29,439 nt of DNA from Candidatus Thorarchaeota archaeon (GTDB lineage Archaea; Asgardarchaeota; Thorarchaeia; Thorarchaeales; Thorarchaeaceae), in assembly GCA_003345595.1 (NCBI GenBank), contig PRDI01000041.1, positions 1-29,439 on the forward strand. The letters run 5' to 3'. The position numbers and the translations under genes are program-made. Numbering within the stretch: the stretch's first letter is position 1; each line of letters opens with the position of its first letter. The notes below the pieces were generated by a model that did not search any database, had not been told where the DNA came from, and worked only from the letters and a program-made list of their open reading frames with translations. This document shows, piece by piece, positions 2,685 to 8,531 of the stretch.

Positions 2685-3755
2685 TCATGCCGCGCCGCGG
2701 TCACCGATTCTGAACCTGAGAAGAGTCCGGTGATAGTAGGTTTCATCGGGTCTTAGAATGACTGTTTCAGAGAAGTGAGGGTCATTGATTGCATTCGGGG
2801 GTCTCTGGTCTTCCAGGCACACGGCCGAGTGTTTCCGACAAGCCTTTCCAAACGATTTCAGTGAACCCATGGAGTTGCCCGTATATACCACAAGACAAGG
2901 TTCAGTCGTGTATATCTCCATTCTTCTTCCGGTGTCTGGCGAAGATAGCTCGCCGGCGTAGAACATACCCTCTGGCTTTGTCTTCCTGCCAAACCCGTCC
3001 AAAAGGAAGATGTCATCGACATCGCCGTATTCAGAGAAGATCCGCGAGAAAGATTTCTGAACGCGTAGGTCGAGAGGAGTGCCGACAACAGGCTTGATCT
3101 CTCCAGTGGGAATCCTGTTCTGGTCAGCAGGCATGTAGCGGGAAGACTCGAGCCTGATTTGCATGCCATCAACAAGACTGTCGAGTCCGTCGAGATTCCA
3201 GTAGCTATGGTTAGTCAGATTCACGATTGTAGGCTTGTCGGTCTTTGCGATGAACTCCCAACCGAGTTCCATAGGAGTTGCTCTGTATGTAAGAAGTACA
3301 CTCAGCCTGCCAGGATAACCTTCCTCACCATCATGGCTTGCGTGCTCGAAAACCAAGGCTGCACTGTCTTCCTGACGAAGTGCTTTCTTCAGCTTCAAGG
3401 TCCAGATCTTCCTGTCAAACCCCTCGTTTCCGCCGTGTAGCGAATGGCCGCCAGAGGTGTTGGCTGACAGGTGATGCTCGGTGCCATCCAGTATGAATTT
3501 GGCGTCTGCAATGCGGCCTGCTACTCGGCCAATTGTAGCCCCAAGATGGCCGCCTTGTCTGAGGAGCTCCTCTGCGGAATCCTGTCCAAAAGCTACGTCA
3601 GACGCGTTTCCTTTCCGATCAGGCATGGTGACCCTGACTATGGATGCGCCTAGGTCAGATATGGACACCCGAAACCCTGATTCTTTATCTTTCATGGTGT
3701 AGAGTCTTGATGGTTGTGGTCCAATGTGACCCCAATCGGACGCGAGAATCTCCAT
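2685..3755 (-). CDS. galM: Aldose 1-epimerase (galactose mutarotase)
   Basis: GATIGRVAGRI, HSLHGG, EEGYPG, NLTNHSYWNL and CLE motifs of the GalM family. Confidence 0.95.
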   Translation of the reverse strand: MEILASDWGHIGPQPSRLYTMKDKESGFRVSISDLGASIVRVTMPDRKGNASDVAFGQDSAEELLRQGGHLGATIGRVAGRIADAKFILDGTEHHLSANTSGGHSLHGGNEGFDRKIWTLKLKKALRQEDSAALVFEHASHDGEEGYPGRLSVLLTYRATPMELGWEFIAKTDKPTIVNLTNHSYWNLDGLDSLVDGMQIRLESSRYMPADQNRIPTGEIKPVVGTPLDLRVQKSFSRIFSEYGDVDDIFLLDGFGRKTKPEGMFYAGELSSPDTGRRMEIYTTEPCLVVYTGNSMGSLKSFGKACRKHSAVCLEDQRPPNAINDPHFSETVILRPDETYYHRTLLRFRIGDRGAA

Positions 3756-4008
3756 GGCTGGCCAAGTTGTACAAGAACACTTAAAGAAGACTGGATTTCG
3801 TCGGGATTGCGAATGCTGGCCGCCGAGTGTAGGCGAACACTCCCAATGTCCAATAGGCGGGTCACTAGGATGTATTCTACAAGATGCCCAAGGCAGGGAA
3901 CGGCGTTTTGTTTGGGAGTCATTGATTCCAACAAGAGATAAATGTCCTCATGCCAAGCTTACGGCCATTAGGGTTCTCTGAGAAACAGATCTAGGTGGTG
4001 CTCGGGAA

Positions 4009-4698
4009 ATGCTGGGACCTATACACTACTTCTACCTCGCGGCATTTGCAGTGACGGCGGTCTGCACTCTGCTTCTAGTTCGAAGGTATCTGGAACAAAG
4101 AAACACGTTGTCCTTGGCGTTCACCTTTGTCATAGGTGCGTCAACCGTGTTTTGTCTGTTGATGTTTGGCAGAGGATTCTTCGATGCTGGCTCCGATGGC
4201 AGCATTCTGATGTACCGTGCAGCCATGGTAGCCACCACTGTGATCCCTGCATTGCTGTCCATCTTCCTCTTCTATCCCCTGATTCTCGAGCGCAAACAGA
4301 CGGGCAAGGATATGCTCGTGAGGGTAGTATTGTTGTTCATCTGGGTGTTCGCTATAGTTGGCATGCTCCTGATTTCGGTGTTGCCTTCGACACATCTGTA
4401 CGCGATGTATGAATTCGATGTTTACTCCGTTTCGTACGGGCCGATCAGCTATACGATGGTACTCGCAATCCCCGTGCTAACCGTGCTGATAGACGCCTTG
4501 GTGATCATGATGATGGTGATCAGGGAGAACGAGAAGTTCTACAAGATGAGAGCGCTGCTCCTAATGCTTGGTTGGCTTCTAGTGCTGGCGGGCGAGCTTG
4601 TGCTTCTAGTACCAATCCTATTGATTCTGAACCCGCTACTGTTTGTCACAGGTACCGTAATAATGGCGCTGGCAATTCTTCGGAAAGCCCCGACATAG
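4009..4698 (+). CDS. Stand-alone seven-transmembrane membrane protein (HisKA_7TM/receptor-like)
   Basis: Seven hydrophobic segments (approx. aa 5-24, 33-53, 66-92, 103-125, 146-171, 182-201, 203-224). Basic loops after TM1, TM3 and TM5 and at the C-terminus imply N-out/C-in. GGTGGTG lies upstream of the ATG. The gene call is secure; the family call is inference. Confidence 0.75.
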   Translation: MLGPIHYFYLAAFAVTAVCTLLLVRRYLEQRNTLSLAFTFVIGASTVFCLLMFGRGFFDAGSDGSILMYRAAMVATTVIPALLSIFLFYPLILERKQTGKDMLVRVVLLFIWVFAIVGMLLISVLPSTHLYAMYEFDVYSVSYGPISYTMVLAIPVLTVLIDALVIMMMVIRENEKFYKMRALLLMLGWLLVLAGELVLLVPILLILNPLLFVTGTVIMALAILRKAPT

Positions 4699-4825
4699 GC
4701 AATCGCGAGAAGATATCCCCGCAAGACAAATAGAGCCCAATGTGGGTGCAACTCAGTCACAAGAGCCCCTTGATGCCCCCAGATTTGCAGCGTCGGACCC
4801 ACCAATCTGGTGACGGGTGAAGCTA

Positions 4826-5335
4826 ATGCCAACTGTCAGGTCAAAGACGAAGAAGATTGTCATGGTCGGCGCAGGCGGCGCCGGTAAGAGCACAATAGCG
4901 TCTCGCCTCGTTACCGGCACGTTTGTAAATCGCACCATGACGATTGGCTTGGACATAGAATCATGGGCACTCGTGGATGAGGAAGGACAGGTTTCAGCAA
5001 GAGCCGCTATCTTCGATCTGGGTGGACAGGAGCACTTTCGATTCTTTCAGGAGAGATTCGTTTCTGGTGCAAGCATTGTGCTCATAGTCTTCGACATCAC
5101 TCGTTTCAAGACAATCATCGATATTGACGAATGGGTTCCAATTATTGAAGGCTTGCCGCGTCAGAAGTGGCTTCTGGTTGGTAATAAAACTGATGAAGGT
5201 CAGGTCATACCCACGGAGGAGATTGAGAGTAAGGCCAAAGAACTGGGAATTCCGTTCGTTCTCGTTTCGGCAAAGACCGGAGAGAACTTCGATAAGCTGG
5301 CCGACATGGTGCAGCACCTGTTGCGATCTGCCTAG
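4826..5335 (+). CDS. Ras-superfamily small GTPase, Rab-like
   Basis: G1 GAGGAGKS, G2 T(IG), G3 DLGGQ, G4 NKTD, G5 SAK. RabF-like segments IGLD, HFRF, FVSGA and IVFDIT. No C-terminal Cys motif. GGTGA precedes ATG 4826 (alternative GTG 4817). Confidence 0.95.
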   Translation: MPTVRSKTKKIVMVGAGGAGKSTIASRLVTGTFVNRTMTIGLDIESWALVDEEGQVSARAAIFDLGGQEHFRFFQERFVSGASIVLIVFDITRFKTIIDIDEWVPIIEGLPRQKWLLVGNKTDEGQVIPTEEIESKAKELGIPFVLVSAKTGENFDKLADMVQHLLRSA

Positions 5336-5399
5336 AGCAGTCGAATGCGAGACCAGCCTGAATAATAGGTTGTCTTCGCTGTCCTCGGCCACTAGCAGG

Positions 5400-5408
5400 C
5401 TTTAATAG
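5400..5408 (+). promoter_or_regulatory. Putative archaeal TATA box
   Basis: CTTTAATAG about 45 nt upstream of ATG 5451. Confidence 0.4.
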
Positions 5409-5450
5409 CGGTGATGAGCAGAATCAGGTAATGTCGGTTGTGCATGAGGG

Positions 5451-6302
5451 ATGGCGATGCAGTCCAGCGAAACGAAGCAGGTATTCGTCTTCTGCGACAA
5501 GTGCAAGCAGAATGTTGCCCTAGATGTGCGACCTGATGAGATACAGGGTAACACCACAGGCATCGCGGGTGTCCTGTCTGTTCACGGGTCTCCCCAGCAC
5601 GCGATTCTGGTCTACCTCGATAAGCAACTAAGGGTCAGGGGCTGCGAGTATCCTTCTGCTGTGCAGGTGAGGGAAGCACCGACGGTGTCAGCCAAGCCTG
5701 AGTCTGTCGTCGGCGAGCTGGGCAAGGATGGTGCTCTGACTCTTGACTCTCTCGTTGATTCCTTTGGGAAAGGACGCAAGAACGGGACCGACGCTCTAGG
5801 CGATGTTGTGGCCCAGATCATGATTAAGAACCCTGTGTATTTGGTCCATGACAATCCCACTACAGGAGGGCTCGTTCTCAACAACCTAAAACAGCTATTC
5901 GCTGAACAGGAAACTTCAATCAGCCTAATCAAACATGAGCGGATAAAGAGTGTCGTCGGGCTGAAGCCGCTCGTTTTCGACCTTCAGCTGGTGAAGTTCC
6001 TCACTGAAGGAGTAAAGATGGACAGCCGATTCTTCCGCCTGCTGATCAGAGACTGCTTAGATGAGGCCAACAGCTATTATAGGCTGAGAAACGAAGTCTC
6101 CAAGATTCTTTTCGCCTACGGTGTACTGAGGCAACGCCTTTCCACCAGCGGCGTGAAGATACTCGACACTCAGCTCGCGAGAGAGTCTTCCATAGATTTC
6201 TCGTTGATGCCTGTACTGCTGAATATGGCAGAGACTGAAGGTATCGACGTGAAATCGAAGGTGGAGCTAGATGGCCTTGGCAGGGCAATAAGGAGTTTCT
6301 AG
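5451..6302 (+). CDS. Hypothetical protein: N-terminal CxxC/H/H metal-binding domain plus putative DENN/folliculin-like C-terminal region
   Basis: CDKC...HGSPQHAILVYLDKQLRVRG N-domain, then a linker, then LDSLVDSFG..DVVAQIMIKNPVYLVHDN...LVLNNLKQLF...LVFDL resembling the cDENN core. The gene is secure; the domain call is by eye. Confidence 0.65.
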   Translation: MAMQSSETKQVFVFCDKCKQNVALDVRPDEIQGNTTGIAGVLSVHGSPQHAILVYLDKQLRVRGCEYPSAVQVREAPTVSAKPESVVGELGKDGALTLDSLVDSFGKGRKNGTDALGDVVAQIMIKNPVYLVHDNPTTGGLVLNNLKQLFAEQETSISLIKHERIKSVVGLKPLVFDLQLVKFLTEGVKMDSRFFRLLIRDCLDEANSYYRLRNEVSKILFAYGVLRQRLSTSGVKILDTQLARESSIDFSLMPVLLNMAETEGIDVKSKVELDGLGRAIRSF

Positions 6303-6320: not shown

Positions 6321-8531
6321 TTACTTGAGCCGCCGGCGGAATAAGACAGTGCCGATGATTACAACTGCAAGAACCGCAAGTGCTCCGGCTATGAAGTAAT
6401 CAGAGACCAGGTACCCAACGGCTACGGTTACTTCATCAGACGCACTGCGATTTGCCCAATCGAAGACTGTCACGTTGAGCAAATGTGTACCGGGGCTGAG
6501 ATTCTCAATTTGCAGTAAATGGCTTAGGCCGCCAAACGAACCCACAAGGGAACTGTCGATTCGGACTTCTACGAGATGGCAGCCGGACCCCATGTCAGAC
6601 ATAGTCCAGTGCAGCACAAGTGTAGAATCAACTGAGCTTCCCTCAGCGGGGTATGTTATGGTCACGGTTGGGTCCAGAAGATCAACCATGAAGCTGATTT
6701 GCTCGGTCGCGCTGTTGCCCGCACAGTCCAGTACAGTAACGTTGACTATGTGCATACCGTGGAAAAGGCCAATCAGGGTTGTGTTGGTGATTGGTCCTGT
6801 GTAGACGGTTGAGTTCGTATTGTCAAGCCACACTTGTGAGAAGGAATAGCCGCTGCCTGAGTCCCAAGCATTCCAGCTGCACCCTACATGATCAGTCGAA
6901 ATGTTGGACAGGGCCACAGGAGAAACCATGGTGACGGTAGGGCTTTCAGTGTCGATTCTCACTCTGTAATGAGCGGCTGTCTTTCCGACGTTTCCCACAG
7001 AGTCTCTTGCTACCACGTGAATGTACCAGGTTCCGTCACTCAAGTTCGTACTCACGTAGGTACCATTCACTGTTGTGTACGCGAATCCACCAGGAGTGGG
7101 TACTGTTCGAGGACTCTGGTCGACCACGTAGTAGAAGCCCGAGATGCCATTAACGTCAGCTGGTAGCGACCAGTTGAAATGAGGCTTGGGGTTGCTGGAC
7201 CAGCTGTTCGGGTCGGGATGGGTTATAGAGCCAATGTTCGGCGACAGCACTGTGCAGTCGTAGATAATGGTCAGAACCGGGTCTCCAATGATTGCCATTC
7301 CGTAGTACCACTGCAGATACTCGGGCCCCGCGGTGCTGCTGGGCGAAAGAGCATTTGAAAACCACTCGACGAGGCCATCTCCAAGGGTCGCATTGCTATG
7401 CAATGCAGAGTAGAAGTAGTTGCAGTCCATCATGCCGCCTGTCTTTGTGCTTCCTATGGCGGCCAGGCTGTAATCGCCCGAGAAGGTGTATGTTACAGCC
7501 AGATCATCTATAGCTGTCCATTCGGCCCCGGAGCATGCGAAGAGATTGTAGAAATTCGACGCAGGCCCGGCAGCCCGGATGTCTGACGAGCTCGCTGTGC
7601 CCTCGCCATCACCATATGGACCAAAGTAGTGCATAGTGGCTGAGCTGTGCACACAGATGTGTGTCCACTGGTTATCCTGTGGAACCCTGTTGTTGAGCCA
7701 GTCCTCTGCTGTAGTCAGAAGTGGTTCCTGAATGAGTGTTCGAGTTGGATATGCCAGCCCCACATCATCACTCCATAGTGTCCCCCATATTCCCGACCAG
7801 TCATCGTCCACATAGACCAATGCGCGGTTGGTTCGTTGGAGGTTTCCAGTGCGATACGCATGAAGCCGGGCAAGGTACTCTTTGATGTGGGTAGCAGTTC
7901 CTGAGCCCCACGACAAGCAGGTTGGATCAATGCGGCCGACGAAGATTTCAGGATAGATGTCGCCTAGCGCAGACCCAGAGTGGCCATCATAGATTCCATC
8001 TTGGGGCACGGTATCAGACCATGTGCCGTCAAGATCCATTAGGTAGAGATCACAGATGAAGGTTTCAGCATCAAATTGCACTGACGCAGGGTGGTGAAAC
8101 CGAGCATACGGAAGCCGTCCAATCAAAACTGCACCGACGAGACTACTACTATCATACCATTGGAAAAGCATGTCCTTCAGATCTTGGTGACTGTTGACTT
8201 GCCCTGTGTACAGGATTGTATTGTACCCGGAGTCTTCAAGGTCTCTGCAATACTGAGTGACCTCTGATGAAACGTTCGAGTACAATGAGTCCTGAACGAT
8301 GACGGCGACAGACTTGCCGCCTGCAGGCTCTTCTGTCACAAAGTACGCATCGTACGGTATCAAGCTAGGGGACTCCGTTCTGACTGGGCCGTTCTTGTCC
8401 GCACCCTTGTTGAGCAGTCCGAGCGGTGTGTCATCAGGAGCAGGTGTAACAAGTGTGGTTACTATCAGAGCAAGACAGCAGAGAATCGCCAACAAACATT
8501 CCGGTTGGACAGACCTTACATACCTATCCAT
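6321..8531 (-). CDS. Secreted, membrane-anchored gingipain-like cysteine peptidase (C25/clan CD) with Ig-like domains
   Basis: Hydrophobic N-terminal signal. VGAVLIGRLP, DLYLMDLDG, PEIFVGRI, putative catalytic His (VHSS) and Cys (LFACS), and IIGDP. Ig-like repeats ending D..GN / D.ANR. C-terminal TM helix followed by RRRLK. Confidence 0.8.
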   Translation of the reverse strand: MDRYVRSVQPECLLAILCCLALIVTTLVTPAPDDTPLGLLNKGADKNGPVRTESPSLIPYDAYFVTEEPAGGKSVAVIVQDSLYSNVSSEVTQYCRDLEDSGYNTILYTGQVNSHQDLKDMLFQWYDSSSLVGAVLIGRLPYARFHHPASVQFDAETFICDLYLMDLDGTWSDTVPQDGIYDGHSGSALGDIYPEIFVGRIDPTCLSWGSGTATHIKEYLARLHAYRTGNLQRTNRALVYVDDDWSGIWGTLWSDDVGLAYPTRTLIQEPLLTTAEDWLNNRVPQDNQWTHICVHSSATMHYFGPYGDGEGTASSSDIRAAGPASNFYNLFACSGAEWTAIDDLAVTYTFSGDYSLAAIGSTKTGGMMDCNYFYSALHSNATLGDGLVEWFSNALSPSSTAGPEYLQWYYGMAIIGDPVLTIIYDCTVLSPNIGSITHPDPNSWSSNPKPHFNWSLPADVNGISGFYYVVDQSPRTVPTPGGFAYTTVNGTYVSTNLSDGTWYIHVVARDSVGNVGKTAAHYRVRIDTESPTVTMVSPVALSNISTDHVGCSWNAWDSGSGYSFSQVWLDNTNSTVYTGPITNTTLIGLFHGMHIVNVTVLDCAGNSATEQISFMVDLLDPTVTITYPAEGSSVDSTLVLHWTMSDMGSGCHLVEVRIDSSLVGSFGGLSHLLQIENLSPGTHLLNVTVFDWANRSASDEVTVAVGYLVSDYFIAGALAVLAVVIIGTVLFRRRLK

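Follow-up and report, generated by a model that had tools for sequence, protein, structure and literature searches.

DENN-domain proteins have been described in Asgard archaea (Liu et al., bioRxiv 10.1101/2020.10.19.343400). According to the same study a putative operon is conserved in most Asgards, in which the genes for a Rab-like GTPase and a DENN protein accompany that for a Roadblock protein resembling LAMTOR1; it has been proposed to act as a folliculin-like guanine nucleotide exchange factor (GEF) module. The occurrence of DENN folds in prokaryotes has also been noted elsewhere (PMC13392464). Here we analyse a related arrangement in the genome of a Candidatus Thorarchaeota archaeon (assembly GCA_003345595.1; 2.73 Mb in 129 contigs, 83% complete). 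It lies in contig PRDI01000041.1 (C41), the whole of which, 29,439 nt, forms the window of this study. Three consecutive genes on the plus strand encode a seven-transmembrane (7TM) protein (P0001; positions 4009-4698), a small GTPase (P0002; 4817-5335) and a protein with a zinc-type beta domain (Zn-beta) followed by a DENN fold (P0003; 5451-6302). The conserved core of this cassette is the pair of 7TM and DENN-like genes, not that of 7TM and GTPase. On balance the three proteins probably constitute a membrane-docked module for regulating a small GTPase, a lineage-specific variant of the Asgard operon in which the 7TM protein replaces Roadblock.

The cassette resembles the published Asgard operon in that the gene for a Rab-like (not a Rag) GTPase adjoins the gene for a DENN-fold protein, the two being compared by fold and layout. 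It differs in that the third place is taken by a 7TM protein related to HisKA_7TM, which is here the more constant partner of the DENN protein; a Roadblock profile found no match in the three genes between the opposite-strand flanks. Also unlike the operon, the DENN protein has a beta domain of Cys2-His2 type and no recognisable longin, and members of its sequence family occur in a single taxonomic family only. Full-text searches of the literature gave no report of an Asgard DENN/GTPase operon with a 7TM partner, and a study of Asgard GTPases (Tran et al. 2024) mentions neither membrane partners nor DENN. What is new is that a 7TM partner stands where Roadblock would be expected, and a zinc beta domain where a canonical longin would be. 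A sequence-only reading of this DNA suggested that the three genes would be a GPCR-like or trafficking-like system in a prokaryote; taken as a claim to a first-of-kind system this is too strong, as the Asgard operon and the actinobacterial sensor-GTPase systems were already known.

Those actinobacterial systems, the conservons (CvnA-D; Komatsu 2006 via PMC4316618; PMC12236503; PMC13621833), comprise a membrane sensor, a small GTPase and regulators, and on these accounts have been likened to G-protein-coupled systems since 2006. The cassette shares with them the layout of a prokaryotic membrane sensor-type protein, a small Ras-type GTPase and a regulator, and the analogy is one of layout only. 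A conservon has a histidine-kinase-like sensor with its kinase module, Roadblock/MglB and CvnC regulators and an MglA-type GTPase, whereas the cassette has a sensor-type domain lacking a kinase, a DENN-fold regulator and a Rab-like GTPase. Profiles for kinases, Roadblock and DUF742 gave no match in the three cassette proteins.

Folds of the three proteins

P0003 (283 aa) matches no Pfam or NCBIfam family at E values up to 1, and its family profile, when compared with sequences of the Protein Data Bank (PDB), gave nothing but chance-level matches to Bloom helicase. Only 35 relatives were returned when 1.84 billion representatives were searched exhaustively with HMMER. No longer or fused form of the DENN-like protein was found, which is weak evidence. 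An AlphaFold2 model calculated from a 23-row alignment (pLDDT 85, pTM 0.69) is tripartite. A beta domain of five strands (residues 9-66, encoded at 5475-5648) is connected by a disordered, low-confidence linker (residues 67-97, 5649-5741; pLDDT below 50 at residues 74-93) to an alpha/beta core followed by helices (residues 98-283). The core (residues 98-190, 5742-6020) is cDENN-like and contains the motifs VYLVHDD and VFDL; the helical part (residues 193-283, 6027-6299) is dDENN-like and includes a winged-helix-like sub-fold at residues 217-274.

The model was compared with known structures by two independent methods. The top six of 48,161 chains ranked by VIA-align are all DENN proteins, superimposed on residues 91-272 of P0003 with 156-175 residues aligned. 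These are DENND10 (Z 11.6, rmsd 5.1 over 163 aligned residues), DENND1A (Z 10.6), the folliculin C-terminal domain (Z 9.4 and 9.3), SMCR8 (Z 8.6) and C9orf72 (Z 7.9). Foldseek places DENND1B and DENND1A with Rab35 on top. Since both methods rank DENN proteins first, the model supports a DENN fold (i.e. cDENN plus helical dDENN) for residues 91-270, and the DENN-like core that had been suspected in the third protein is upheld at the level of the fold. The alpha/beta core also gives weak matches to the GspE and FlaI ATPases (Z 7); identity as a P-loop NTPase was ruled out by the missing Walker A motif.

P0003 thus shares with the eukaryotic DENN proteins (DENND1A/B-Rab35, PDB 3tw8 and 6ekk; DENND10; folliculin-FNIP; C9orf72-SMCR8) the fold of residues 91-270, at Z values of 7.9-11.6, as well as a preceding beta-rich N-terminal lobe and an association of its gene with that of a Rab-like GTPase. 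It differs from them in giving no profile match and in length (about 280 residues, compared with 400-1000), and its N-terminal lobe is predicted to bind zinc and is without the longin helices. The partners of the eukaryotic proteins are lipidated Rabs, or Rag or Arf GTPases on lysosomes, while P0002, the candidate partner here, is lipid-free.

The N-terminal domain lies where the uDENN or longin domain is found in eukaryotic DENN proteins. It contains C17-x2-C20 and a near-invariant H45-G-x-P-x-H50, together with D57 and R63; C17, C20, H45 and H50 are likely to form a Cys2-His2 zinc site, as predicted from the sequence. Within the model of the whole protein the order of elements is beta-beta-alpha-beta-beta-beta, with a single helix of 5 residues, and is compatible with a stripped longin core.

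P0001 (229 aa) has seven hydrophobic helices. There are about 13 Lys and Arg residues in the predicted cytoplasmic loops compared with 2 outside, and the topology is therefore taken to be N-out/C-in, with a tail of 5 residues after helix 7. The AlphaFold2 model (20-sequence alignment, pLDDT 92.6) contains all seven helices, and residues 127-141 form a short beta hairpin on the outer side. The protein is not fused to a histidine kinase or other output domain, so that the description of this gene product as a stand-alone 7TM protein is borne out. All 20 members of the aligned family are 209-264 aa in length, and no longer or fused homologs were found, although the search for these is weak evidence.

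P0001 itself has no Pfam match at E values up to 1 and no NCBIfam match. HisKA_7TM (PF16927) is matched by five of the 20 aligned family members, the best at 3.7e-7, and one homolog carries a precomputed HisKA_7TM annotation. HisKA_7TM is the membrane sensor domain of archaeal and bacterial histidine kinases (PMC5847659). P0001 resembles these sensors in being a seven-helix membrane module with N-out/C-in topology, but differs in that it is unfused and itself falls below the Pfam threshold.

In structural comparison the top VIA-align matches of P0001 are the transmembrane domains of class C G-protein-coupled receptors (GPCRs), i.e. GABA-B, GPR156 and mGlu5 at Z 15-17, together with designed GPCR-like folds, and the top 50 Foldseek matches are all GPCRs (E 1e-3 to 1e-2). 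Rhodopsins, the adiponectin receptor and ceramidase score Z 13-14, and the baseline stated for helical bundles by the aligner is also about 13-14. Because these values are so similar, the GPCR match is read as a common 7TM arrangement only and not as membership of the GPCR family. A microbial rhodopsin or other retinal protein was excluded, as helix 7 contains no lysine.

The most conserved positions of the 7TM family are cytoplasmic, and comprise RRYxxQRN after helix 1, YP closing helix 3 and RExExFYKxRA after helix 5. This is how a docking surface for a cytoplasmic partner would be expected to look. On the extracellular side there is a conserved RGFF(D/E) motif.

P0002 is a complete small GTPase. 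It matches Pfam Ras (PF00071) at 3.3e-27 and TIGR00231 at 7.3e-21, and its motifs are intact (G1 GAGGAGKS, the switch I T, G3 DLGGQ, G4 NKTD and G5 SAK), including the catalytic Gln of switch II. Among solved structures the best-matching relatives are Sec4, Rab6, Rab1 and Rab 7ezb from a Thorarchaeota archaeon, so that its Rab-like character is given by the ranking of pairwise matches. The C-terminus is LLRSA, and the cysteine residues at which Rabs are prenylated are missing; the earlier description of the protein as complete and unlipidated is in agreement with these data. Ten aligned GTPases of the cassette type have the signature VGAGGAGK[ST]TIASRL, MTIG and FDLGGQEQFRFFQ in common, and all ten lack a CAAX-type or other C-terminal cysteine for lipidation. 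A G-alpha profile gave only E 0.28, over the P-loop. P0002 is a single-domain Ras-type protein, not a heterotrimeric G protein of the kind to which GPCRs are coupled. The host genome contains about 17 open reading frames (ORFs) for small GTPases.

Conservation of the cassette

In what follows T, G and D denote the 7TM, GTPase and DENN-like genes, and numbers with the prefixes G and L denote genomes and loci. When 400 genomes of the phylum were searched with a profile, full-length, high-scoring relatives of P0003 turned up at about 40 loci, only in the taxonomic family of the window. Loci of the P0003 family were fetched with flanks of 5 kb, and all neighbouring genes were clustered. The 7TM family is present in 16 of the 86 genomes and eight of the 16 genera of this taxonomic family, and was not found in 150 genomes of other families that are at least 90% complete. 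The 86 genomes contain 23 7TM genes or fragments. Sixteen of these lie next to a DENN-like gene, either directly or with only the GTPase gene intervening. One more lies 1.2 kb from a DENN-like gene, four are orphans and two are at contig ends. The 7TM gene is upstream of the DENN-like gene at the 16 loci, with the order T-G-D at six, G-T-D in one genus and T-D at seven. One 7TM-DENN locus (L047, in G344:C125) contains a relic of the GTPase between the two genes, i.e. a C-terminal remnant of 38 residues with 58% identity. It lies in the 237-nt gap that separates the DENN-like gene (1619-2464) from the 7TM gene (2701-3396), and to judge from its sequence is the result of decay of the GTPase gene in place.

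The flanking genes differ in nearly every genus, giving about 12 contexts, and two or more paralogous cassettes are present in each of the genomes G335, G336 and G325. In close relatives from metagenomes (62-66% identity) the three genes stay together, in one case followed by another downstream gene; close relatives also have the galM and ABC-transporter flanks in common. At greater distance the 7TM-DENN pair persists at 25-45% protein identity despite new flanks and rearranged order. The changing flanks and the internal rearrangement argue for selection on the linkage.

The maximum-likelihood tree of the DENN-like proteins is split by one branch (support 100/99) into genes that are linked to a 7TM gene and genes that are not, and the linked side consists of five deep, long-branched lineages. 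When the DENN clades are mapped onto the 7TM tree there are 6 label changes, compared with a minimum of 5 and a mean of 10.7 after shuffling; none of 200 shuffles gave a number as low. The 7TM and DENN-like families have therefore been shown to co-diversify, and since the 7TM tree reproduces the DENN clades we conclude that the pair has been duplicated and inherited as a unit. A comparison of gene order in relatives had been suggested as a check on the association of these genes, and it favours linkage, the 7TM-DENN pair being kept in five deep lineages with different flanks.

On the 7TM-free side of the tree there are 21 full-length DENN-like genes. Eighteen have msrA upstream; in G350 msrA is one gene further away, and G322 has neither. 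At the base of this clade is G320, in which only a GTPase gene lies upstream of the DENN-like gene.

The orphan 7TM genes nest inside one cassette clade of the 7TM tree. One of them is a paralog in the host genome (C120:5148-5822, minus strand; L006), with 31% identity and no GTPase or DENN-like neighbour, and it has orthologs in G332 and G324. Because it nests inside a cassette clade it has probably lost its partners. In a sister genome in which the DENN-like protein is 91% identical (L037, G334:C51, 3397-4241) the 7TM gene is split into ORFs of 129 and 157 aa, by either a frameshift or an assembly error. A short metagenome contig (L003) has tandem 7TM copies at 17-709 and 1002-1652, with 44% identity to P0001 and no GTPase gene between them.

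Genomes with T-D loci still encode GTPases that are 50-58% identical to P0002 at other places, and several of these adjoin small proteins that have the same Zn-beta domain as P0003. P0002-family GTPases also adjoin Zn-beta proteins in genera that have no full cassette (L115 and L116). The Zn-beta domain, of about 70 residues, is widespread and present in multiple copies across the phylum, some families having six or more matches per genome. A sample of 20 loci drawn from about 14 families (examples being L097, L101, L107, L109, L114, L115 and L116) includes eight in which a small GTPase gene is the direct neighbour of the Zn-beta gene, compared with a chance expectation of a few per cent, roughly estimated from the density of GTPase genes. 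No related 7TM gene was found beside the Zn-beta genes in these 20 loci outside the home family; the membrane protein upstream of the GTPase-Zn-beta pair at L107 is a VIT1-type transporter. The Zn-beta domain looks like a general GTPase-associated module, which supports the idea that P0003 acts on P0002, and it may be an undescribed GTPase-partner domain.

We note some further arrangements of these genes. In one distant family member the Zn-beta domain is fused to V4R (PF02830, 1e-13) in place of the DENN-like part, so that the N-terminal domain is combined with different modules of GTPase-regulator type; V4R is the prokaryotic relative of TRAPP Bet3. Host contig C68 (L076:2623-5307) has a second cluster that combines a membrane protein with a GTPase. 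Its first product is a 105-aa protein with the same beta domain as P0003 (pattern CxxC...H...D..R), and this is followed by an overlapping 138-aa protein that by eye is roadblock/longin-like and has no Pfam match, then by a polytopic membrane protein of 487 aa and lastly by a GTPase of the Ras family (PF00071, 3.3e-39). In G335 (C1:529272-531245) there are three tandem genes for GTPases of the P0002 type, with 47-51% identity, apart from both cassettes.

Organisation of the locus

The cassette consists of exactly three plus-strand ORFs between genes on the opposite strand, as had been read from the sequence. Upstream is galM, encoding an aldose 1-epimerase (2685-3755, minus strand; Aldose_epim 7.5e-70), and the divergent intergenic region between galM and the 7TM gene (3756-4008) is presumed to contain the promoter of the cassette. 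Downstream and convergent is the gene for a C25-like peptidase of 736 aa (6321-8531, minus strand), which carries Ig-like domains (Big_7/Big_13) and is anchored in the membrane at its C-terminus; this adjacency is not kept in other genera.

Gene 2 could start at GTG 4817, giving a GTPase of 172 aa, or at ATG 4826, giving 169 aa. The latter is preferred as the more likely start because a Shine-Dalgarno-like GGTGA box (4809-4813) lies 12 nt upstream of it. The first spacer is 118 nt in length, or 127 nt when measured to the ATG (4699-4825), where its counterparts in relatives are 23-44 nt. The second spacer (5336-5450) is 115 nt. Across the relatives the cassette genes are separated by 8-90 nt or overlap. 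An A/T-rich box, TTTAATAG, is present in the second spacer at 5402-5409 and may be an internal promoter for gene 3. The TATA-like box noted earlier for the third gene is thus real as a sequence feature, but the consensus TTTAWAW does not occur anywhere in the window, and a scan of the window for promoters and terminators gave results at chance level.

Possible function of the cassette

The 7TM protein is almost without soluble parts and conserved on its cytoplasmic face, and would keep P0003 at the membrane. P0003 would in turn bind its dedicated lipid-free Rab-like GTPase through the Zn-beta domain and the cDENN core, and set the nucleotide state of the GTPase. By analogy with DENND1-Rab35, nucleotide exchange is a first guess for this activity. 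Alternatively it could act as a GTPase-activating protein (GAP), using the near-invariant Arg63 beside the HGxP motif, as in folliculin-type longins. In either case the active GTPase would be confined to the site on the membrane that is marked by the 7TM protein.

The first step of this scheme was examined by complex prediction, as proposed in the sequence-only reading, with the 7TM and DENN-like proteins both entered as alignments. The score was 0.35, compared with 0.01 for the best of three controls. The score mark is reached by 58 of 80 solved complexes and two of 110 mismatched pairs, although scores of 0.60 or below include only seven of those 80 solved complexes, together with both of the mismatches that pass. 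Agreement of contacts between runs was at least 76%, and the partner pLDDT at least 74. The prediction lends weak support to a 7TM-DENN interface.

A number of observations weigh against a regulatory module of all three proteins. The GTPase gene is absent from seven of the 16 7TM-DENN loci and a relic in one more, so the switch is not an obligatory neighbour. The proposal of a module of 7TM protein, GTPase and third protein holds for the linkage of the 7TM and DENN-like genes, but it is these two that form the constant pair. There is a well-supported clade of 21 DENN-like genes that have no 7TM gene, most of these genomes lacking the 7TM family altogether, so the DENN-like protein can work without it, and four 7TM genes stand alone, including the paralog in the host genome. 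All of the cassette genomes belong to one taxonomic family, so that the lineages are not fully independent and the conservation is partly that of shared descent. The spacers of 115-127 nt in this window, and the promoter that gene 3 may own, are further points of this kind. Lastly, none of 23 P0003-family members matches DENN, folliculin, SMCR8 or longin profiles, and the N-terminal domain is without the canonical longin helices.

The same arrangement could be read as a true receptor pathway, in which the sensor-type 7TM protein binds a ligand from outside or within the membrane and switches the exchange or GAP activity of the DENN-fold protein, so that the lipid-free Rab-like GTPase is loaded at the membrane and carries the signal in the manner of a GPCR system. 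This reading draws on the same evidence of linkage as the membrane-docked module, the family is otherwise the sensor input of histidine kinases (PF16927), and the predicted fold is nearest to the transmembrane domains of GPCRs (VIA Z 15-17; the top 50 of Foldseek). On the outer side there are the conserved RGFF(D/E) motif and the hairpin at residues 127-141, and the conservons provide a functional precedent. Against this, Z 13-14 is the baseline for helical bundles and is reached by rhodopsins and adiponectin receptors that score nearly as high; the GTPase, which should carry the signal, is a dispensable neighbour; and the complex prediction is weak and silent on signalling. We consider such a pathway unlikely. 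The frequent absence of the GTPase gene would be accommodated if the 7TM-DENN pair were the whole of the conserved unit, with no action on the adjacent GTPase, whose position would then be secondary. P0003 might be a soluble regulator, even one that binds DNA, which a membrane sensor sequesters or controls, or it might be an accessory subunit serving a 7TM transporter or enzyme. Besides the seven of 16 loci, this reading has in its favour the resemblance of residues 217-274 to DNA-binding domains of the winged-helix type (Z 5-6.7), the Cys2-His2 zinc domain at the N-terminus and the weak match of the core to GspE and FlaI at Z 7. However, every one of the best matches of P0003 is a DENN protein, aligned over 160 residues at Z 8-12 and scoring much higher than the winged-helix domains, and the core as read from its sequence has no Walker A motif. 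The enrichment of the Zn-beta domain beside small GTPases (8 of 20 loci), the GTPase-DENN arrangement of G320 at the base of the 7TM-free clade, and the retention elsewhere in T-D genomes of GTPases that are 50-58% identical all connect P0003 with a GTPase, and we regard a pair that has nothing to do with it as more doubtful still.

That the three genes have no functional link, and are neighbours by descent within one archaeal family, is disfavoured and seems very improbable. It would be consistent with the restriction of the cassette to one taxonomic family and with the galM and ABC-transporter flanks that close relatives also keep. It is opposed by the persistence of the pair at 25-45% identity while flanks and internal order change, by the duplication of cassettes as units, and by the way in which the 7TM and DENN trees mirror each other. 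The membrane-docked module for regulation of the GTPase is thus the reading that we prefer.

Asgard archaea encode dozens of Ras-superfamily GTPases that are without lipid anchors of the eukaryotic type, and to our knowledge the native regulators and membrane partners of these GTPases are essentially unknown. The cassette is a candidate for the way in which lipid-free archaeal GTPases reach membranes. It provides three concrete proteins that are kept together through deep divergence, i.e. a membrane protein, a DENN-fold regulator of eukaryotic type and a probable GTPase client. If the proteins do not bind one another, it would be one more lineage-specific neighbourhood around the published Asgard DENN proteins. 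Were the receptor pathway to be true, it would be a prokaryotic forerunner of the control of Rab and Rag regulation by membrane receptors, for which the eukaryotic comparison is PQLC2 with C9orf72-SMCR8 and lysosomal folliculin. If the proteins bind as proposed for the membrane-docked module, the widespread Zn-beta domain could be a general GTPase-binding module of archaea, and the targeting of GTPases to membranes by means of a polytopic partner and a DENN regulator would predate eukaryotes.

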